Shown in pieces: positions 3,251 to 63,904 of a DNA stretch of 64,000 nucleotides. Within the stretch, counting starts at the first letter, position 1; every line of letters begins with the position of its first letter. The notes beneath the pieces are model-generated. The model made no database searches and was not told where the DNA came from. It saw only the letters and a list, made by a program, of their open reading frames with translations. The translations under genes were made by a program, and so were the position numbers. The DNA is from Minisyncoccia bacterium (GTDB lineage Bacteria; Patescibacteriota; Minisyncoccia; UBA6257; 2-01-FULL-56-20), in assembly GCA_050015515.1 (NCBI GenBank), contig JBEKBG010000003.1, forward strand, positions 6,871 through 70,870. The letters are read 5' to 3'.

Positions 3251-4126
3251 ATGGCTGAACAACCCTATTTCCTCGACGCCCATACCCACGTGCAATTTTC
3301 CGGTTACGACGCCGATCGCGGCGCGGTCATCCAACGCGCGCTTGACGCGGGTGTCCGGAAGATGATCGTCATTGGCACACAGAAGGATACGTCGCGTTCA
3401 GCGGTGGCGTTGGCGGAGCAATATCCCGACAATGTCCGCGCTGCGATCGGGCTTCACCCCATCCACACGAGTCGGTCGTTCCACGATGCGCAGGAGCTCG
3501 GCGGCGGAGACGCGGCGCAGGCGTTCACCTCGCGCGGCGAGAGTTTTGATATGGACTATTACCGAGCGCTCGCGCGGGATCCACGGACGGTCGCGATCGG
3601 CGAATGCGGCCTGGATTATTTTCATTTCAACGACGACGAGCCGCGCGAGGTGCAGATCGCCCGGCAAAAAGATGCGTTTCTTTTACAGATCGATCTTTCT
3701 AAAGAAGTGAGGAAGCCGCTCATGGTCCATTGCCGCGATGCGTTTTCCGACCTTATCGAGTTTCTTCAGCCGCATGCGGACGATCTTACGCCCGGCGTCG
3801 TGCATTTTTTTACCGGCACCGCAGATGACGCCCGGCGTCTGCTCGACATGGGATTTTCATTTACCTTCGGCGGCGCGATTACGTTCCCGCCACGCAAAGG
3901 AAGAACGCAGGGCGACTATGACGAGGTGATCAAGCTGATCCCGATCAATCGCATCATGAGCGAGACCGACGCGCCGTACGTCGCTCCCGCGCCGTTTCGT
4001 GGCAAGCGCAACGAGCCGGCGTATGTGGTGCACGTGGTGGCACGGCTTGCGGAATTGAAAGGCGTCTCGACGGATGAGATGAAGGCGCAGATAGAAGAGA
4101 ACTCGCAGCGGATATTTGGGATATAA
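3251..4126 (+). CDS. TatD family metal-dependent hydrolase/DNase
   Basis: N-terminal FLDAHTHV motif, family-typical length and conserved His/Asp/Glu positions. Confidence 0.85.
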   Translation: MAEQPYFLDAHTHVQFSGYDADRGAVIQRALDAGVRKMIVIGTQKDTSRSAVALAEQYPDNVRAAIGLHPIHTSRSFHDAQELGGGDAAQAFTSRGESFDMDYYRALARDPRTVAIGECGLDYFHFNDDEPREVQIARQKDAFLLQIDLSKEVRKPLMVHCRDAFSDLIEFLQPHADDLTPGVVHFFTGTADDARRLLDMGFSFTFGGAITFPPRKGRTQGDYDEVIKLIPINRIMSETDAPYVAPAPFRGKRNEPAYVVHVVARLAELKGVSTDEMKAQIEENSQRIFGI

Positions 4127-8775: not shown

Positions 8776-8849
8776 AGGATTATTCTAACATGAAAAAAGA
8801 AAACCGCCTTCCCCAAAAGATTCAATTTTCTTGGGTTGGCGGATTTTGG

Positions 8850-9104
8850 TTATGGGGTTACGCAACTTTGCAACTTGCTCTTCCACCAGTAATAGGAACG
8901 AACGCCGATCGCGACGATGTAGACCGCATATACTATCACCATCGTGATCTGCGAAGGAATGGGGATGTCTCTCTGAAATATGACGAGAATTTCTCCGATC
9001 ACGATGTAGGCGAGGGCGGTAAAAAAGAAAGCGACCGCACCACCTATGATTCCTACGATGAGTCCCAATACTGCGTTCAAAAGCATCAACTTTCTTTTCG
9101 ACAT
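8850..9104 (-). CDS. small two-TM membrane protein (hypothetical)
   Basis: 84-aa hydrophobic ORF; GAGGGTGG Shine-Dalgarno-like sequence 6-7 nt upstream of ATG; the antisense + ORF 8790-9170 is not hydrophobic and lacks an RBS. Confidence 0.4.
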   Translation of the reverse strand: MSKRKLMLLNAVLGLIVGIIGGAVAFFFTALAYIVIGEILVIFQRDIPIPSQITMVIVYAVYIVAIGVRSYYWWKSKLQSCVTP

Positions 9105-9192
9105 ATCGAACCACCCTCTATACAGAGATTAGCAGTGATATTTAAGGTTGTCAAAATTATCGGGAGATAATTCGCATCCGTCGCTTTGGCGT

Positions 9193-11069: not shown

Positions 11070-11636
11070 TCAAGATGATTTAAATTCCGAGCCCGGTTTC
11101 CACGGCACGCCAAGCCAGGGGAGCAGCCACCGGTCGAGGCCGAGCCATCCGGCGTTGCGCCACGCGAGGATCAGGAATAATTCAATGAGCAACAGCAGTG
11201 GATTCACGCTGACCGTTCCGGCAAAGAGATAATTGAGATTCATGAACGCGCCGAAGAACGCGGCGATGCCGGTGAATGCGCCGAGCACCAACCCGACACC
11301 AACGGCGAGCTCGCCAAACGTGATGAGATACGAAAAAATCGTGACGTGAGGAAGTGCGACGCTATGAATGAACCATGCGTACCATGACGTCACCGCCGGA
11401 TTGGTGCCCGTCGCTTTCGCCGCTGCGGCGGAAAGGAATCCGCGGAGCGTGGTCCCTGCTTGCGGACCGATCCACATGCCACCCGTCGCTTTTCCCCATC
11501 CCGCCGTCACCCATTGGTAGCCGACGTAAAGGCGGAGCAGAAGCCATACCCATGCCACCCGCGTGTCGGCAAACAAAAATCCCGCAAGCTTCGGCTCGGG
11601 AATCACGACCGATTTGTGCGATGGGCTTTCGGACAT
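11070..11636 (-). CDS. DoxX family membrane protein
   Basis: DoxX-like TM pattern (LRLYVGYQWVTAGWGK...); start at internal ATG 11636; the ORF-track extension to 11891 runs through hairpins and up to a tRNA gene. Confidence 0.7.
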   Translation of the reverse strand: MSESPSHKSVVIPEPKLAGFLFADTRVAWVWLLLRLYVGYQWVTAGWGKATGGMWIGPQAGTTLRGFLSAAAAKATGTNPAVTSWYAWFIHSVALPHVTIFSYLITFGELAVGVGLVLGAFTGIAAFFGAFMNLNYLFAGTVSVNPLLLLIELFLILAWRNAGWLGLDRWLLPWLGVPWKPGSEFKSS

Positions 11637-11792
11637 GAAGTTATTATAACTTATTTGCGGCGGAGGGGGTGGGATTCGCCCGCGGCTCAAATGCTCGCCG
11701 TCGCTCGCATTTGGCCTGGGCACCGCCTCGCTGATTTTCTCTGCTGAGAAAATCAGCTCCGGCGTTCGAATCCGCACATTCAAACAAGCAAT

Positions 11793-11856
11793 AAAAAGAA
11801 TATCCCTTTCTGGCGAATTATTCTTATCACGAGCCAGAAAGGGATATTCTTTTTTT
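11793..11856. terminator. 21-bp perfect hairpin followed by a T-tract on both strands, downstream of tRNA-Ser
   Basis: aaaaagaatatccctttctgg ... ccagaaagggatattcttttt; further short hairpins at 11690-11760 (caaatgc/gcatttg; gctgattttctc/gagaaaatcagc). Confidence 0.5.
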
Positions 11857-11861
11857 GTTGT

Positions 11862-11949
11862 TGGCGGAGGGTGCAGGACTCGAACCTGCAAGTCCCTTAC
11901 GGGACCCCGGTTTTCAAGACCGGTGCCTTGCCATTCGGCGCAACCCTCC
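11862..11949 (-). tRNA. tRNA-Ser (anticodon TGA), type II with long variable arm, CCA encoded
   Basis: folded by hand: acceptor GGAGGGT/ACCCTCC, anticodon loop CTTGAAA, variable stem GTCCC/GGGAC, T-arm GCAGG-TTCGAGT-CCTGC. Confidence 0.9.
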
Positions 11950-11958
11950 TCTTGAACT

Positions 11959-12447
11959 TTATACCATCAACTTGTAATGTTTTCCAATCCAGCTTCTGGT
12001 TAGGTAATGCTCTTCAGAGTGGCAATTGGGGCAAATCAATTCAAGGTTACTCAACTCATTATTCTTTCTATTTCTGTCTTTATGGTGTACATTCAAAATC
12101 TCACGTTTATTATAGCCGCACCTTTCGCATTTTCCACCCCGAATTTCAATCAACCTTATTTTTAAGAGTCCCGTAGAAACGATTTTATCTTTCAATCTAC
12201 GCCCGGTATATTTTATGCCTGCCCTATTCTTATTCGCGCAACTTCTGCTGCATGTCTTTTTATTTAATCTTGCGGCGATGGGCCTTTTGCAAATTACGCA
12301 TGGATGCTCTTTGAGTATGGATTTGCCGTAACAATCCATACTACAAAAGACATTTCCTTTGTTGATCGATATTTCTTTCGGTCTCCGATATATCGGCTTC
12401 CGACAAATTTTGCATTCAATGTTTGGGTTTCTCTTGTACGTTTCCAT
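11959..12447 (-). CDS. HNH endonuclease with N-terminal zinc-finger-like Cys clusters; AT-rich
   Basis: HNH core CERCGY...LNVHHKDRNRKNNELSNLELICPNCHSEEH; CxxC pairs near N-terminus; local GC clearly lower than flanks (visual). Confidence 0.8.
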   Translation of the reverse strand: METYKRNPNIECKICRKPIYRRPKEISINKGNVFCSMDCYGKSILKEHPCVICKRPIAARLNKKTCSRSCANKNRAGIKYTGRRLKDKIVSTGLLKIRLIEIRGGKCERCGYNKREILNVHHKDRNRKNNELSNLELICPNCHSEEHYLTRSWIGKHYKLMV

Positions 12448-12510
12448 TCGCGTACTTTATCGCAACACACAATAGATTTCAAGAGAAAATTTTAGAATTT
12501 TTTAATCTTG

Positions 12511-12581
12511 TGGACCCATGGGGAATCGAACCCCAACCTCCTCCATGCCATGGAGGCGTAATACCATTTTACTATGGGCCC
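12511..12581 (-). tRNA. tRNA-Ala (anticodon GGC) with G3:U70 identity pair, no encoded CCA
   Basis: hand fold: acceptor GGGCCCA/TGGGTCC giving G3:U70, anticodon arm CCTCC-ATGGCAT-GGAGG, T-arm TGGGG-TTCGATT-CCCCA; short D-loop makes it 71 nt. Confidence 0.8.
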
Positions 12582-12626
12582 TTCGTATAACAATCTTTCG
12601 ATTGCCTGCCACTCATTCTATATATA

Positions 12627-12655
12627 TTGCAGGCATTGCGTCAATCATCTATAGT
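12627..12655 (+). promoter_or_regulatory. sigma70-like promoter for the + strand tRNA cluster
   Basis: TTGCAG-N17-TATAGT, 8 nt upstream of the tRNA-Arg 5' end. Confidence 0.5.
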
Positions 12656-12663
12656 TTGTTCAA

Positions 12664-12738
12664 CGCCCTCGTAGTTCAATGGATAGAACGGCTCACTCCT
12701 AACGAGCTGATAGAGGTTCGATTCCTCTCGGGGGCACC
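12664..12738 (+). tRNA. tRNA-Arg (anticodon CCT)
   Basis: same arm layout as E. coli argW; anticodon loop CTCCTAA; T-arm AGAGG-TTCGATT-CCTCT; 3' end ACCC. Confidence 0.85.
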
Positions 12739-12789
12739 CTTGAAATCGCGTCGCGTTTCTGCGACCATAGAGTGGCACGTATGCAAAGC

Positions 12790-12876
12790 GGTGAGGTGGC
12801 TGAGTGGTCGAAGGCGCCGCACTCGAAATGCGGTGTACCTGAAAGGGTACCGTGGGTTCAAATCCCACCCTCACCG
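12790..12876 (+). tRNA. tRNA-Ser (anticodon CGA), type II
   Basis: acceptor GGTGAGG/CCTCACC, anticodon arm CCGCA-CTCGAAA-TGCGG, long variable arm, T-arm GTGGG-TTCAAAT-CCCAC; flanked by 10-bp inverted repeat atgcaaagcg/cgctttgcat. Confidence 0.9.
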
Positions 12877-12943
12877 CTTTGCATGTGAAGGTTATTGCTT
12901 ATTGCGCAATCCCATTATTTTCGCTATATTTTCTTGTGGCGGC

Positions 12944-13016
12944 GCCACCTTAGCTCAGCTGGTAGAGCAGTGCTTTCGTAAAGCAAAGGTCCCCGGTTCG
13001 AATCCGGGAGGTGGCT
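12944..13016 (+). tRNA. tRNA-Thr (anticodon CGT)
   Basis: acceptor GCCACCT/AGGTGGC, anticodon loop TTCGTAA, T-arm CCCGG-TTCGAAT-CCGGG; G27.A43 mismatch. Confidence 0.85.
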
Positions 13017-13042
13017 CAGAAAAGTGATATAATCAAGATATC

Positions 13043-13273
13043 ATGAAACGCGAACAAATTTCTTCGCAGGACGGTCCAAGCGAGCCGCAGATTCCTCAAC
13101 AACGGAATTTTGATTTCGAGGGAGCGGCTAAGAAAGCGGCTGTGGAGGCCAAGGCGATAGAATTGCGGAAAGTGAATGATTGGACGCTACCCTACGCGCG
13201 CGCCATGGCGAGTCAGCAATTAAAAAAAGAAGAGTGGGAAGAGAAAGCTAGCCAGAAAGAGAAATCCAATTAG
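13043..13273 (+). CDS. small charged hypothetical protein (76 aa) immediately upstream of prfB
   Basis: ORF with TGATATAAT -10-like element upstream; no recognisable domain. Confidence 0.4.
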   Translation: MKREQISSQDGPSEPQIPQQRNFDFEGAAKKAAVEAKAIELRKVNDWTLPYARAMASQQLKKEEWEEKASQKEKSN

Positions 13274-13279
13274 TTTTTT

Positions 13280-14327
13280 ATGAACCGAAACGAACCACTT
13301 CAGGAACTTACAGAAGAAGCTCGCCAACTGGGCGAGCGTCTTTGACCTCGCGGCGAAACAAAAACGGATCGTGGAATTGGAAGCGGAAATGTCATCCGCT
13401 GGTTTTTGGAATGATCGGCAAAACGCCGATGCCAAGATCCGCGAGCTTGGCGAACTGAATGATGTCATTGCAAAATATGAGATCATTCGCACCGGTATCG
13501 ACGGGCTTAAGCTTCAGTTCGATGAAAATAATTTCCACGATATCAAGCGTGCATTTCGCGAGTTCGAGCTGAAACAACTTTTTACGGGCCGTTACGACAA
13601 GCAGTCGGCGGTCCTTGCGATCTATCCGGGCGCGGGAGGCGAGGATGCGGAAGACTGGGCGCGGATGCTCGGCGCGATGTACGAAGGCTACGCGCGCGAG
13701 CGCGGCTGGAAAGTGCGCGAAGTGGACGATAATCCGCGCTCGCGCGCGATTGAAATAAGCGGCGCGTACGCGTACGGCTATTTAAAGAACGAGCAGGGGG
13801 TGCACCGCCTTGTGCGTATCTCGCCGTTCAACACAAAGCACTCGCGTGAGACATCCTTTGCGCTCGTGGAGGTCGTGCCAGACCTCCCGGCACTCGACGA
13901 ATCGAAGCTGCAAATTCCGGAAGCCGACCTGCGGTTTGAGTTCTCTCGCGCCGGCGGTCCGGGCGGCCAGAACGTGAACAAAGTGGAGACCGCCGTGCGG
14001 GTAGTACATATTCCAACGGGCATCGCGATCAGTTCGCGCGCCCAGCGCTCGCAGCAGCAGAATCGCGAACAAGCGCTTAAGATCTTGAAGGCGCGGCTGT
14101 TCCAACTGATGGAGCAGGAAAAAGTGGAAGAGGTTGGTGCGTTGCGCACAAAGGTAAAGCCAGAGTGGGGGAGCCAGATCCGTTCGTATGTGTTGAATCC
14201 CTATCAAATGGTAAAGGATCACCGCACCGATGCCGAAACCTCGCGTGTAGATGACGTGCTGGCGGGAAATATCGATATGTTTATAGAAGCCATGCTTGAG
14301 CAAAAATCTCCTGAAAAAAAGGATTAA
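13280..14327 (+). CDS. prfB: peptide chain release factor 2 with programmed +1 ribosomal frameshift (frame A 13280-13342, shift at CTT TGA C 13340-13346, frame B 13344-14327)
   Basis: SPF tripeptide (RISPFN) and GGQ motif identify RF2; upstream in-frame 21-codon [24 protein letters not shown] ends at UGA within the canonical CUU UGA C slippery site. Confidence 0.88.
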
Positions 14328-14361: not shown

Positions 14362-14676
14362 GTGGCCTATGATTTGTGGATGATAAAAAAACCAAAAGAG
14401 AAAAAAATAACAATCGATAAATTAGCCATTATGGTCCAGGAAGGGTTTATGGCAATGGCAAAGCAGGAAGATTTACTTGCGTTGGCCGGGCGATTGGATA
14501 AATTTGAAGAAAGCATCAATGTCCACTTCGATAAGGTAGATAAACATTTTGGCGAGATGTCTTTAGAATTGAAAGAGATTCGTAAAGAGGTTTGCGTCAA
14601 CGAGCTGAAAAATCGTGGCGACGTTGCCAGTCTCGATTTCCGCGTAAACAAGTTAGAAAAGAAAGCCGGATTCTAG
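14362..14676 (+). CDS. AT-rich coiled-coil hypothetical protein (104 aa)
   Basis: ORF only; low GC relative to flanks; no recognisable motif. Confidence 0.35.
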   Translation: MAYDLWMIKKPKEKKITIDKLAIMVQEGFMAMAKQEDLLALAGRLDKFEESINVHFDKVDKHFGEMSLELKEIRKEVCVNELKNRGDVASLDFRVNKLEKKAGF

Positions 14677-31081: not shown

Positions 31082-31606
31082 ATGGCAAAAAATTATGCTA
31101 TGGCGAGAAAAGAAGCGCAGGAATTATATGGCACTTTTACAAGCGTTGGTTGTCCGGCATTCGGAGGTGAATTGGTTTATTTTACCTCTGAGGGATTTAA
31201 TCATTTGATCTATAAAGGAGCCGGAAAGGAGCGTGATCCAAGGGTCCAAATAATGAAATTTGAACTTTTGCCCAAGGCGCGGCTTATCATAGAAATGTCA
31301 TCTACATTTCAGGAGTATGACGAGGGATTTGAATATCGAGTCGTGGAAAAATATGGAAAGAGGATTAAGGAAAGCGTCCTCGTCCGATGTTGGGGATTGG
31401 TAGCAATCATTCAAAAGTTTCGGGTAAAAGTGGTGATACGGCAGATCGGGAATGGGAAGAAAGAATTTTATAGCGTCATTCCGGCGTGGTTCACCAGGCA
31501 ATATCGAAACATGAAAATTATTGAGACGTCCGCGAGGGGTGGATTGCTCGAGGAAGATGATGCCGAGGCACTAAAAAACGCCACCAAGAAGAGTGACGCT
31601 CTTTAG
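31082..31606 (+). CDS. AT-rich hypothetical protein (174 aa)
   Basis: ORF with extended -10 TGGTAGAAT 11 nt upstream; no recognised domain. Confidence 0.45.
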   Translation: MAKNYAMARKEAQELYGTFTSVGCPAFGGELVYFTSEGFNHLIYKGAGKERDPRVQIMKFELLPKARLIIEMSSTFQEYDEGFEYRVVEKYGKRIKESVLVRCWGLVAIIQKFRVKVVIRQIGNGKKEFYSVIPAWFTRQYRNMKIIETSARGGLLEEDDAEALKNATKKSDAL

Positions 31607-42221: not shown

Positions 42222-42245
42222 GGGATAGTAGTGCTATAATTGAGC

Positions 42246-43775
42246 ATGGTTATAATTCTTAATTTCGGAAGTCAGTTTGCGCATCTCATAGCTAGGAGAG
42301 TTCGAGAACTCGGCGTCAAAGCTGAGATTTTACCCTTTGACGCATCGCTTAAACAAATAGCATCGCTTAGTCCCGTAGGTATTATTCTTTCTGGTAGCCC
42401 TGCTTCAGTTTTAGAGAAAGGAAGTCCGCGCCCCAGCAAGGGCATTTTTAATTTAGGAATTCCGGTGTTGGGGATCTGTTACGGAGAACAAGTGATGGCG
42501 TATATGTTCAATGGCAAAGTTCAAAAAGGCGATCACAGAGAGTTTGGTAAGGAAACGCTAAGGATTTCATCAAATCCGTTGTTTAAAGGATTAAATCACA
42601 ATGAAGTAGTATGGTTCTCGCACGGCGATCAAGTAACGAAGTTGCCGAATGGGTTTATCGCTATCGCTTCAACTAACGGATGTCGTTATGCAGGAATGAC
42701 GAATATAAAACAGAATCTATTTGCGATTCAATTCCATCCCGAAGTGACTCATACACAACACGGGAAAACGGTTCTTTCGAATTTCCTTTTTCAAATATGT
42801 AACGCGCCAAAAGATTGGAAGCTCGGTAAGGTTTTACCGGAACTTGAAGCGTCTCTTAGCAAGACGGTCGGAAAGGAACATGTGGTAGTTGGCATTTCTG
42901 GGGGTGTCGACTCTCTTGTCGCCGCGACTCTTTTATATAAAGCTATCGGAAAACAATTACACGCAGTGTTTGTTGATACGGGATTGCTTCGTAAAAACGA
43001 AGTTGAAGCAGTCTCCCGCTCTTTGCGTAAACAAGGATTTAAAAACCTTCATGTGATTGATGCGCGAACCATCTTTTTAAAAAGATTGAAAGGCAAGATC
43101 GACCCGGAAGAGAAACGGAAAATCATTGGTCATACGTTTATCGAAGTATTTCAAACAACGATTAAAAAGGAACTTAAAAGATATCCAATAAAATTCTTAG
43201 CGCAAGGAACTATTTATCCCGACCGCATTGAGTCGGCTGAAGCGTCGAAAAACGCCTCCAAGATAAAGAGTCATCATAATCTAACTCTTCCAGAAACATT
43301 GAGCCTAAAAATTCTTGAACCATTAAAGGATTTTTATAAGGACGAAGTAAGGGAGTTGGGCGCATTGCTTGGATTACCAAAAGAACTTCTCTGGAGGCAT
43401 CCCTTTCCTGGACCTGGGCTTGCCGTGAGGATTGTGGGAGAGATAACGCCTGAACGTTTGAATATTTTACGAGAGGCGGATGCCGTTTTTCTTGATGAAT
43501 TGAAAAAAGGAGGAGAATACGAAAAGATTTGGCAGGCATTTGCCGTTCTTCTTCCTCTGCGAAGCGTTGGTGTAATGGGGGATTCAAGGACATATGAATA
43601 TATGATCGCTTTGCGGGCGGTAGATTCCGTGGATGGTATGACTGCGGATTGGCATAAAATCCCTCCCCAATTATTGGAACGCATTTCCAGTCGCATAGTT
43701 GGAGAGGTAGGGGGCGTCAATAGAGTGCTCTACGATATTACCCAAAAACCTCCCGCGACGATTGAATACGAGTAA
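42246..43775 (+). CDS. guaA: GMP synthase (glutamine-hydrolysing); noticeably lower GC than neighbours
   Basis: class I GATase Cys (GICYGEQ), ATP-PPase SGGVDS motif, C-terminal dimerisation domain; TATAAT 6 nt upstream of ATG. Confidence 0.95.
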   Translation: MVIILNFGSQFAHLIARRVRELGVKAEILPFDASLKQIASLSPVGIILSGSPASVLEKGSPRPSKGIFNLGIPVLGICYGEQVMAYMFNGKVQKGDHREFGKETLRISSNPLFKGLNHNEVVWFSHGDQVTKLPNGFIAIASTNGCRYAGMTNIKQNLFAIQFHPEVTHTQHGKTVLSNFLFQICNAPKDWKLGKVLPELEASLSKTVGKEHVVVGISGGVDSLVAATLLYKAIGKQLHAVFVDTGLLRKNEVEAVSRSLRKQGFKNLHVIDARTIFLKRLKGKIDPEEKRKIIGHTFIEVFQTTIKKELKRYPIKFLAQGTIYPDRIESAEASKNASKIKSHHNLTLPETLSLKILEPLKDFYKDEVRELGALLGLPKELLWRHPFPGPGLAVRIVGEITPERLNILREADAVFLDELKKGGEYEKIWQAFAVLLPLRSVGVMGDSRTYEYMIALRAVDSVDGMTADWHKIPPQLLERISSRIVGEVGGVNRVLYDITQKPPATIEYE

Positions 43776-52026: not shown

Positions 52027-52416
52027 TTACGATCTTCCAAAAGAAAAACCATTATCTGCATAGAGATGTATGTATCCGAAAATTACCAAAATAAGATAAA
52101 TAAGGGAAAGCACGATATCAATGACGCCGATAGTTATAGTTATGTTGGCTACTCTGCGAGCTGTCGAAAAATTCTCCGCCGATTGCAAGGCTATCCTACC
52201 GCTAATAAATGCAAATACTCCCAAGAAAAAGGCGGGCAATGAAATGAGCCACACGGGGATAATACCTCTCCAGAGCCCATTACCTGCAGCCATAGCAGTT
52301 GAATATGCCTGCATCGCATACAGAACAGATGACGGAATGCCGCAGATGCCCAAAAAAAGACCTGCCCAAGAAAGCTCTGAGGGCATTTTTTCTTTTGGAA
52401 CAATATTCGAATCCAT
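52027..52416 (-). CDS. small polytopic membrane protein (hypothetical)
   Basis: hydrophobic ORF; start placed at MDSNIVPK. Confidence 0.5.
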   Translation of the reverse strand: MDSNIVPKEKMPSELSWAGLFLGICGIPSSVLYAMQAYSTAMAAGNGLWRGIIPVWLISLPAFFLGVFAFISGRIALQSAENFSTARRVANITITIGVIDIVLSLIYLILVIFGYIHLYADNGFSFGRS

Positions 52417-52505
52417 ACTCAAATTATAACACAACAATAGCCGAGTCCACGGTTGAGGGAGGGATTCAAAAAACGCATGGCCCTCTGAGGCATTCCGGTT
52501 TGTCC

Positions 52506-62838: not shown

Positions 62839-63408
62839 TCAAAGTAGGATCTCTTTATCTGCTTTCTGAAAAAGTAGATAGATGAATTTTTTATCCTCTT
62901 CAGAATTAAAAACCTTAAGTCCTAAGCGAAAAGCTTCCTCCAATAACCCATCGCGAACCTTTTTGGCATCCTTTTTTGTTTTTGCTGGACGTTCCGCTTC
63001 GTAAAAGAAATAATTTTTCGGTGCGCGTACTAAAGACCATTCCACACCCTGATAGGTATATACATCGCTTGAACGCTTTATCTGCAACGCTTTATCAATC
63101 CCGACCGCCTTCACGACTTTTTTCGCTGTTTCCAGATTATTATCTTTTAATGCAAGGGAGATCTCCTCCCGCGCTTCATTATTCTTAGAGACCTTCTTTT
63201 TTACCATAATCTCGCAGGTGCCATTGGTGTTTCGTAAACGAATATCAACCGTCCGCTCAAGCGGATCATGGGCATATCCCGGATGGCCGTAAAGAAAAAA
63301 TGCCTCTCGGTCCGTGTGTCCCATGAACTTTCCGCGCTTGGCAAGGAAGCGGCGCAGGTGTTCATATGCCTGCTTGTCGAGCGACCCTCTGATTTCAACC
63401 TCAATCAT
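62839..63408 (-). CDS. CYTH-domain protein (class IV adenylyl cyclase / triphosphate tunnel metalloenzyme-like)
   Basis: N-terminal EVEIR (ExExK-like) motif and alternating basic/acidic beta-strand pattern typical of the CYTH tunnel. Confidence 0.5.
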   Translation of the reverse strand: MIEVEIRGSLDKQAYEHLRRFLAKRGKFMGHTDREAFFLYGHPGYAHDPLERTVDIRLRNTNGTCEIMVKKKVSKNNEAREEISLALKDNNLETAKKVVKAVGIDKALQIKRSSDVYTYQGVEWSLVRAPKNYFFYEAERPAKTKKDAKKVRDGLLEEAFRLGLKVFNSEEDKKFIYLLFQKADKEILL

Positions 63409-63475
63409 TTTTCTTTATTTTATCACATACCGTCTTTATTTGTATTTCCATTGGATTGGTGCGACAATATTTTTT

Positions 63476-63904
63476 ATGAGAATCTACGTACTCGGCAGCA
63501 GCTCATTCAAGGAAGAGATGGTGAGGACGACGAATAAACTTAAGGAACTTGGATACAATGCTTGGATCCATCCGGATTACGAAGCTTTTGTGCGCGGAGA
63601 GAAGAAGGATATTATAGAGCGATGGCATAATGGGGAACACGCGGCCATTAAGCGGGAAAATAAATATCTTGAGCAGCATTACCGGGGAATTTTGGAAAGC
63701 GACGCGGTGCTTTTCGTCAATGCGGAAAAAAATGGAATAAAAAATTATATTGGCGGAAATGTTTTGATCGAAATGGGGCAGGCATATGTGAACAATAAAA
63801 AGATATTCTTCCTGTACGACATGCCGAGCCAGCTTCCGTATATGGATGAGATCGAGGCCATGGATCCGATTTGCCTGAACGGGGATCTTGCCGCCATCGC
63901 TTAA
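63476..63904 (+). CDS. nucleoside 2-deoxyribosyltransferase-like protein
   Basis: MRIYVLGSSSF N-terminus and IGGNVLIEMGQAYVNNKKIFFLY resembling the NDT active-site region; the ORF-track start at 63314 is an unlikely extension. Confidence 0.55.
   Translation: MRIYVLGSSSFKEEMVRTTNKLKELGYNAWIHPDYEAFVRGEKKDIIERWHNGEHAAIKRENKYLEQHYRGILESDAVLFVNAEKNGIKNYIGGNVLIEMGQAYVNNKKIFFLYDMPSQLPYMDEIEAMDPICLNGDLAAIA

Follow-up and report, generated by a model that had tools for sequence, protein, structure and literature searches.

A free-standing HNH endonuclease gene paired with tRNA-Ser(UGA) across Patescibacteria is probably a homing-type selfish cassette

We analysed a stretch of 64,000 nucleotides (nt) from a Minisyncoccia bacterium (contig JBEKBG010000003.1 of assembly GCA_050015515.1), here called the window, with regard to a 162-amino-acid HNH endonuclease open reading frame (ORF) in a cluster of five tRNA genes. 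All coordinates are window positions; WIN denotes the window locus, and L-numbers denote loci from relatives. ARAGORN and Rfam confirmed what a preliminary description, made from the letters alone, had stated: the ORF lies between two minus-strand tRNA genes of the cluster, tRNA-Ala(GGC) and tRNA-Ser(UGA), and all five tRNAs score above the Rfam gathering cutoff (Table 1). The ATG is 62 nt from the 3' end of tRNA-Ala(GGC), in line with the roughly 60 nt given earlier, and the stop codon is 9 nt, rather than the 10 nt given, from the 5' end of tRNA-Ser(UGA). The gene is free-standing, as it is intergenic between two tRNA genes and no intron is involved. The segment is indeed poor in guanine plus cytosine (GC), with values of 0.38–0.41 over 11900–12650 compared to about 0.55 for the window; the ORF itself has a GC of 0.38. 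No second HNH copy was found within the 64-kb window. The comparisons reported below indicate that the ORF is probably a free-standing HNH homing endonuclease gene in a compact selfish cassette, with its own promoter and a leaderless ORF, located directly 5' of tRNA-Ser(UGA) in Patescibacteria.

Table 1. Features at and around the HNH locus of the window
Feature	Position	Strand	Basis
tRNA-Ser(UGA), allele class B	11862-11949	-	ARAGORN + Rfam
HNH endonuclease ORF, 162 amino acids	11959-12447	-	ORF list, Pfam, PHROG, AlphaFold2
Promoter-like TTGAAA-17-TAAAGT	12454-12482	-	consensus scan, 9/12 matches
tRNA-Ala(GGC), conserved left neighbour	12510-12581	-	ARAGORN + Rfam
Promoter-like TTGACG-18-TAGAAT, upstream of tRNA-Ala(GGC)	12615-12644	-	consensus scan, 10/12 matches
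tRNA-Arg(CCT), tRNA-Ser(CGA), tRNA-Thr(CGT); divergent, conserved neighbours	12665-13017	+	ARAGORN + Rfam
Hairpin with 17-bp arms and 18-nt loop, then T run	11798-11849	-	sequence + RNA fold
183-nt highly structured segment	11679-11861	-	fold energy, comparison with relatives
20-nt copy of class-A tRNA-Ser(UGA) 3' end	11659-11678	-	alignment
DoxX-family membrane protein gene (PF07681), conserved right-hand neighbour	11070-11636	-	

By sequence and predicted structure, the ORF product belongs to the HNH (beta-beta-alpha-metal) endonuclease superfamily. Pfam PF01844 (HNH) matched residues 107–147 (E 7.9e-07, 29.6 bits against a cutoff of 21.4). The best PHROG match was 1271 'HNH endonuclease' (E 1.1e-15), and more than 20 PHROG HNH families matched. 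Profile searches of the protein returned HNH-type matches only, and no GIY-YIG domain was found. The N-terminal part carries two four-cysteine zinc modules (C12/C15/C35/C39 and C50/C53/C66/C70), and the C-terminal part a zinc-bound HNH core (C107/C110/C139/C142 with H121, H122, N134, H143 and H147). These three cysteine sets of the CxxC...CxxxC type and the HH...N...H residues are invariant across 103 homologs and intact in the window protein, which bears out the CxxC pairs and H-N-H core recognised earlier. An AlphaFold2 model (mean predicted local distance difference test score, pLDDT, 87.3) contains the beta-beta-alpha fold, with strands at 119–122 and 135–138 followed by a helix at 140–150. 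Searches of solved structures with Foldseek returned nothing past a generic HNH domain: only this domain was aligned, to McrA (6ghc), Cap5, the Cas9 HNH domain and T4 endonuclease VII, with probabilities of 0.8–1.0 and weak E values (0.008 or higher). A defence-system assignment was rejected, as PADLOC gave only HNH-domain matches to ZorE and matches to 'homing endonuclease' models. The ZorE-type match was weak (E 1.8e-08) and confined to the HNH domain; only the 'homing endonuclease' models reached past the HNH core.

Relatives of this protein are widespread. More than 1000 homologs with a length of about 160 amino acids and 60–70% identity came up in a protein search, from Patescibacteria wherever the source is named. 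When a single genome of each species was scanned, at least 241 species proved to have relatives, a lower bound, as the scan requires exact peptide words. Linkage was counted in the best 80 loci, 79 of which extend far enough for the test. tRNA-Ser(UGA) lies directly downstream of the HNH gene, on the same strand, in 79 of these 79 Patescibacteria genomes; with about 26 metagenome contigs added to the 79 species genomes, well over a hundred related ultra-small bacteria show the pairing. The gap between stop codon and tRNA has a median of 4 nt and is at most 10 nt in 57 of 78 loci. Twenty HNH ORFs even end inside tRNA-Ser(UGA). In six genomes (L002, L039, L047, L055, L057 and L066) the TGA anticodon itself is the stop codon, so that the ORF extends 36–38 nt into the tRNA, and five other ORFs stop at TAG or TAA in the D loop. 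The upstream neighbour, however, varies between tRNA-Ala, tRNA-Ser(GCT), tRNA-Cys and protein genes while tRNA-Ser(UGA) is constant, indicating that the partner of the gene is tRNA-Ser(UGA) and not the tRNA cluster. The earlier suggestion that the position reflects tRNA clusters as integration hotspots is therefore not upheld, since the gene keeps to the 5' side of this one tRNA whatever lies upstream.

The gene is polymorphic at its site. Syntenic loci of relatives (L163–L174) were fetched using the DoxX gene as marker; the DoxX homologs P0293, P0296 and P0273 lie at loci without the tRNA cluster and were set aside as uninformative. In the clade relatives, whose flanking proteins are 73–83% identical to those of the window, empty sites were found in which only 47 nt (L163), 12 nt (L164) or 3 nt (L165) separate tRNA-Ala(GGC) from tRNA-Ser(UGA). 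L167 is rearranged and also lacks the gene, which is thus absent from four of the seven genomes of the window's own clade. The extra DNA between tRNA-Ala and tRNA-Ser relative to the empty sites consists of the HNH gene and its promoter only, and the whole segment that differs from these relatives comprises only promoter, HNH gene and tRNA-Ser. In a metagenome scan restricted to one tRNA-Ser(UGA) sequence type, 72 loci had enough upstream DNA: 26 (about 36%) carried a full HNH gene, 4 a remnant and 42 (about 58%) none, fractions that are approximate because some contigs resample one population. Decayed copies are found as well. The most similar copy from another species, in L001 (91% amino-acid identity), is a pseudogene with an in-frame TGA at R109 and loss of a zinc ligand (C53R). 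The 53-nt spacer between tRNA-Ala and tRNA-Ser in L246 is made of the final 16 HNH codons, FEEHYLEKSWLKNTGR followed by the stop. Similar C-terminal remnants were seen in L253 and L221, and L194 retains the N-terminus only.

Where the gene is present, its sequence does not always follow that of its surroundings. L010 is as close a relative as L001. Its copy is intact but only 64.9% identical to the window protein, whereas the flanking proteins are 79–97% identical and the four neighbouring tRNAs are nearly identical to those of the window. The divergence begins exactly at the 3' end of tRNA-Ala and ends at the 3' end of tRNA-Ser; the HNH gene and the whole adjacent tRNA-Ser are swapped together between WIN and L010, with DNA conserved on either side. 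The opposite mismatch was found between L007 and L023, whose flanks are about 70% identical but whose HNH proteins are 91% identical. Taken with a slope of 0.46 for the regression of HNH GC at third codon positions (GC3) on host values, these identities suggest that the history of the gene disagrees with that of its host.

The partner tRNA is unusually variable. Among seven related genomes, the mean pairwise identity was 93% for tRNA-Ala(GGC) (range 85–100%) and 87%, 95% and 98% for tRNA-Arg(CCT), tRNA-Ser(CGA) and tRNA-Thr(CGT), which served as internal controls for tRNA conservation, compared to 76% for tRNA-Ser(UGA). The latter falls into three discrete classes with 65–74% identity between and 92–100% within them: class A in L010 (occupied) and in L163 and L164 (empty), class B in WIN and L001, and class C in L165 and L167. 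These classes recur in distant genomes, and close genomes often differ. Stubs of former tRNA genes lie at the locus, too. In L034, L053 and L063, the HNH gene is preceded by the 5' part (positions 1 to 20 or 27) of a tRNA-Ser of a different type, 4–49 nt upstream of the conserved left-end motif of the cassette and 20–60 nt before the GTG start codon. In L189, L198 and L219, which lack HNH, a 5' stub directly precedes tRNA-Ser. From the older tRNA-Ser stubs that survive, we conclude that tRNA-Ser(UGA) was overwritten here on more than one occasion. The site recombines frequently, as expected near the target of a nuclease.

A further stub lies on the other side of the window's tRNA-Ser. The sequence CGAATCCCACCCCCTCCGCC, which corresponds to T arm and acceptor strand, matches class-A tRNA-Ser(UGA) at 20 of 20 positions, other tRNA-Ser at 18 of 20 and non-Ser tRNAs at 15 of 20. 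It records a class-A tRNA-Ser that formerly occupied the locus, as it still does in L010, L163 and L164. Between this stub and the class-B tRNA lies a 183-nt segment with a fold energy of -101.7 kcal/mol (z -9.4), which includes the hairpin listed in Table 1. The segment is absent from L001, L010, L163 and L164; near-identical copies follow tRNA-Ser in L214 and L223, both without HNH; and L010 has a homolog in inverted orientation next to tRNA-Arg(CCT) (about 3450–3700), with a repeat of the 3' 19 nt of that tRNA at its flank. Rfam gave no match for this segment or for the other non-tRNA parts. The 183-nt segment is a separate small element, distinct from the HNH cassette. It has the appearance of a miniature element whose insertion at tRNA 3' ends duplicates some 20 nt. 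Direct repeats of 16–24 nt of the 3' end of the resident or a different tRNA-Ser were also observed 22–260 nt downstream of tRNA-Ser(UGA) in L018, L201, L200, L194, L066, L056, L016 and L204. This suggests that small insertions at the 3' end of tRNA-Ser(UGA) are common in Patescibacteria.

These observations bear on the possibility, raised in the preliminary description, that the HNH gene is what is left of a larger integrated element, such as a prophage or an island with a tRNA attachment site. Low GC, the tRNA context and the 20-nt copy of a tRNA-Ser 3' end situated 184 nt downstream would all suit such a remnant. We consider it very improbable, because the extra DNA relative to empty sites is limited to the HNH gene and promoter and more than 100 loci show this arrangement of a single gene. 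The repeats of tRNA 3' ends that would mark attachment sites do not bracket the HNH gene: the single repeat found brackets the 183-nt segment. The stub was also rejected as the right end of the HNH cassette, since the intervening 183 nt are shared with the HNH-less L214 and L223. The claim that the window holds no integrase stands for what was scanned, as none of ten ORFs (nine of low GC and the SpoU methylase) gave a Pfam match to an integrase family, the rest of the window lying outside the scan. Integrase-type islands and prophages at tRNA 3' ends thus resemble the locus in their tRNA context and in the nearby 3'-end repeat. The locus differs from them in that no integrase was seen in the ten ORFs, in that the insert lies on the 5' side of the tRNA, and in that the repeat belongs to the 183-nt element.

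Composition and selection were then compared across the family. In the window, GC3 is 0.44 for the HNH gene compared to 0.68 for the flanking ORFs. Over the family as a whole, the GC of the HNH gene rises with that of the host (r 0.81), but at a slope of 0.59 (0.46 for GC3), and the gene stays AT-rich in GC-rich hosts such as that of the window. This pattern fits long residence with intermittent transfers between lineages; alternatively, it could result from weak codon adaptation. The ratio of nonsynonymous to synonymous substitution rates (dN/dS) is 0.04–0.07 for close HNH pairs, including WIN and L001, indicating that intact copies are under strong constraint and that the inactivation of the L001 copy is recent. 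Pairwise identity between HNH proteins is uniform over the family (mean 62.6%, 5th–95th percentile 56–70%); flanking orthologs across the same family mostly drop to 20–45%.

Several of these results weigh against a selfish gene that converts its target as it spreads. The correlation of HNH GC with host GC implies that much of the history of the gene is vertical, and a dN/dS of about 0.05 together with mostly intact copies would also suit a gene useful to the host. The identity of HNH proteins is uncorrelated with that of the linked tRNAs (rho 0.02 with the entire tRNA, -0.04 with the 5' part and 0.02 with the 3' part), and long-term co-conversion is therefore not the rule. On the same grounds, co-evolving matched pairs of HNH and tRNA were rejected as far as overall similarity is concerned. 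Some loci that have the HNH gene and some that lack it share an identical tRNA-Ser(UGA), so that tRNA sequence alone cannot explain the immunity of occupied loci, and immunity through tRNA sequence differences was rejected as well. Nuclease and tRNA allele thus form no fixed pair.

A domesticated host gene would account for part of this picture. Such a gene would serve the cell at this locus, for instance by acting on tRNA-Ser(UGA) or its precursor, regulating the tRNA operon or cutting invading DNA that bears tRNA-Ser, and would be inherited mainly vertically with occasional loss. The low dN/dS and the dependence on host GC agree with this, as do the catalytic and zinc residues invariant in 103 sequences, the position fixed across the phylum and the weak ZorE-type HNH-domain matches in PADLOC. 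However, the matches that extend past the HNH core lead only to 'homing endonuclease' models, the GC3 is not host-like in high-GC hosts, and relatives reside in phage tRNA arrays. Moreover, about 58% of the loci that share the tRNA lack the gene, as do four of seven clade genomes, pseudogenes and deletion remnants exist, and L010 carries a 65%-identical allele within a genomic background of 80–87% identity. Domestication is therefore unlikely in our estimation.

The variability of the tRNA raises a different alternative, a cleave-and-rescue pair, in which the HNH nuclease destroys the resident tRNA-Ser(UGA), the cassette supplies a resistant replacement and both spread as a unit, driving allele turnover. 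The joint difference of HNH gene and whole tRNA-Ser between WIN and L010 within conserved flanks is what such a pair would produce, and discrete allele classes, 5' stubs of a different tRNA-Ser type upstream of cassettes and a class-A 3' stub downstream of the window's class-B tRNA point in the same direction. Yet HNH alleles and tRNA classes are uncorrelated, and identical tRNAs are found with and without the nuclease. The classes differ among HNH-less genomes, too (L165 and L167 versus L163 and L164), and the 3' stub of the window is accounted for by the separate 183-nt element. We regard this pair as improbable.

The selfish, homing-type reading offered in the preliminary description is therefore the one we prefer. 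It draws on the empty sites L163–L165, the decayed copies in L001, L246, L253 and L194, the GC3 that departs from that of the host and the relatives in phage arrays. Comparison of synteny in relatives, which had been proposed as a check, found the gene present or absent at the same place (empty in L163, L164 and L165). Conservation of position across the clade together with host-like composition had been named as the outcome that would speak against this reading; the outcome was divided, with a position conserved phylum-wide but a composition unlike that of the host here and a gene that varies within the clade. We take the window ORF product to be an active or recently active homing-type HNH endonuclease, with cleavage and homing proposed by analogy to known systems.

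Most family members carry the motif TGTGGTATACTGG, an extended -10 element, 6 nt ahead of a GTG start codon, within the family consensus TnTGTGGTATACTGGnTGAGTG, whose columns are conserved at 70–99%. The conserved non-coding DNA before the start in most loci is TnTGTGGTATACTGGnTGA, followed immediately by GTG. An extended -10 element only 6 nt from GTG implies a leaderless message, and the mobile unit has its left end where conservation ceases, about 19 nt before the start codon. WIN and L001 have a variant in which TTGAAA-17-TAAAGT ends 6 nt before an ATG, and the window's HNH mRNA is accordingly predicted to be leaderless or nearly so. The promoter-like sequence upstream of tRNA-Ala(GGC) is invariant in WIN, L001 and L010 and is likely the start of a tRNA-Ala/HNH/tRNA-Ser transcript. 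The hairpin and T run downstream of tRNA-Ser resemble a terminator at the end of this transcript; a consensus terminator scan missed the hairpin because its loop measures 18 nt. An internal promoter for tRNA-Ser in the 3' end of the HNH gene was rejected as a general feature, as good sites were found in 12 of 80 loci compared to 6–10 of 79 control windows. TTGGAA-N17/18-TATAAT-like sites were seen by eye in L016, L029, L049 and L063, and weakly in the window. As there is generally no promoter between the two genes, the simplest explanation is that the tRNA is read through from the HNH promoter or one further upstream.

The beginning of the ORF resembles its partner. The 26 nt spanning the HNH start match the 5' end of tRNA-Ser(UGA) with a five-best mean of 14.8 of 26 positions against a background of 9.7 (standard deviation 0.9; z about 5.8), and no such peak was found for other tRNAs. 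In L048 and L067 the match reaches 19–20 nt. This modest similarity hints at an ancestral insertion into a tRNA-Ser gene and serves as a lead.

On these grounds, we propose the following mechanism for the homing-type cassette. In the presence of homologous DNA from another cell or a phage, the nuclease would nick or cut tRNA-Ser(UGA) loci without HNH or with a different allele. Repair of the cut locus by recombination would then bring in the HNH gene, often along with some or all of the neighbouring tRNA gene. The nuclease message would run on into the tRNA as the 5' part of a tRNA-Ser precursor, with low expression. By cutting at the 5' end of the tRNA, RNase P would sever this message at or inside the stop codon and so limit the amount of nuclease, a form of control that has been proposed for segB of phage T4. 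Copies that no longer spread would decay or be deleted. A more speculative version, which we think rather doubtful, is a natural 'cleave and replace' drive, in which the cassette enters tRNA-Ser(UGA) near the D arm and carries or rebuilds a complete tRNA downstream, repeatedly overwriting the allele. The 5' stub left behind would have become the first HNH codons in most copies. If true, the nuclease would spread through the chromosomes of a phylum without the host ever losing its tRNA.

Some further features of the window and its relatives were recorded. Seven more ORFs have a GC of 0.40–0.44 and no Pfam match (8790–9170, 14362–14676, 23604–24647, 25099–25509, 31082–31606, 52027–52437 on the minus strand and 63314–63904); these may be further foreign or fast-evolving genes. 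The GMP synthase gene guaA (42240–43775, plus strand) has a GC of 0.43, well under that of its neighbours, and may have been acquired from a lower-GC relative. A short ORF (13043–13273, plus strand) precedes a release-factor gene (13371–14327, plus strand) with PCRF and RF-1 domains according to the gene calls of relatives, which we take to be the layout expected of prfB with a programmed +1 frameshift. In L010 (6094–6166), L164 (4985–5057) and L171 (5031–5103), ARAGORN called tRNA-like genes with abnormal anticodon loops ('tRNA-???'), which sit between the genes for a SpoU methylase and an S-adenosylmethionine-dependent methyltransferase.

Studies of free-standing homing endonucleases in tRNA regions have dealt with a few phages (T4 and T5). 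Our literature searches found no description of the HNH/tRNA-Ser(UGA) gene pair, and what is new here is a tRNA-associated, probable free-standing homing endonuclease that is found on chromosomes throughout a phylum and linked to a single isoacceptor. All stages of the life cycle of the element are visible in public genomes. If the nuclease targets tRNA-Ser(UGA), this would explain the discrete, horizontally exchanged alleles of that tRNA in Patescibacteria and would be evidence of regular DNA exchange between episymbiotic cells. It would also provide a compact zinc-finger HNH enzyme of 160 amino acids with a natural, conserved target. For annotation, the HNH/tRNA-Ser(UGA) pair is a reliable marker, whereas the present 'HNH/McrA' label hides the identity of the protein.

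A check for phage affinity had been suggested, and relatives were indeed found upstream of tRNAs in phage arrays: a same-strand tRNA lies at most 80 nt downstream of the HNH relative in 20 of 24 viral contigs scanned. Full-length relatives with 42–53% identity lie directly upstream of tRNA-Ser(GGA) or tRNA-Ser(UGA), and those with 26–38% identity upstream of tRNA-Ala, Pro, Thr or Gly within phage tRNA arrays. L081–L083, L085, L086 and L094 form a sister group (42–53% identity, full length) attached to tRNA-Ser(GGA) instead of tRNA-Ser(UGA); L081 has a second, unrelated HNH-type gene nearby. In L087–L093, a 47%-identical full-length relative lies about 20 nt upstream of a phage tRNA-Ser(UGA) in a tRNA array. 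These contigs are cyanophage-like, with pstS, gnd and a 2-oxoglutarate (2OG) oxygenase gene as neighbours, all typical cyanophage genes. Among isolated phages the best matches were weak. One of them comes from the T5-like Salmonella phage S124, whose tRNA region holds an HNH gene directly after tRNA-Ser(GCT) and tRNA-Met; it is 38% identical over the HNH domain.

Homing genes of another family are known from the same phylum. In the Candidate Phyla Radiation (CPR), LAGLIDADG homing genes occur in introns of 16S and 23S rRNA and in rRNA operon spacers (PMC8172020). Like the window gene, they are selfish nuclease genes in or beside conserved RNA genes; unlike it, they are mostly intron-encoded at rRNA, whereas the HNH gene is free-standing, without an intron and tied to one tRNA gene. 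The F-Tfl genes of phage T5 are closer in enzyme family. In the statements of PMC2330249 that cite them, they are ORFs in the tRNA gene cluster that encode HNH-family site-specific endonucleases. On this account, they share family and tRNA-cluster location with the window gene. The T5 and T5-like phage proteins differ from it in that the similarity covers only the HNH domain (residues 68–156), in their larger size (227 amino acids) and in being phage-borne. We know of no fixed partner tRNA for the F-Tfl genes.

The closest parallel in behaviour is segB of phage T4, which encodes a GIY-YIG homing endonuclease and stands free within the tRNA gene cluster of that phage (PMC2330249). SegB recognises a motif of the tRNA T stem-loop, and in mixed infections its gene is passed on at nearly 100% and takes neighbouring tRNA genes along, homing having been shown experimentally (PMC2330249). 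The end of the segB ORF coincides with the site at which the following tRNA is processed, an arrangement suggested to restrict segB expression (PMC2330249). Both are free-standing nuclease genes that lie among tRNA genes and, in our reading of the window locus, are transcribed with them, and related phages lack segB just as relatives of the window lack the HNH gene. In contrast, segB encodes a GIY-YIG and not an HNH enzyme, resides in a phage genome and not in a chromosome, and is not tied to one isoacceptor; homing is experimental for SegB, whereas we infer it for the window gene. The resemblance is therefore one of behaviour and gene layout, not of ancestry. The window gene is best read as analogous to T4 segB and the T5 F-Tfl genes, yet chromosomal and phylum-wide.

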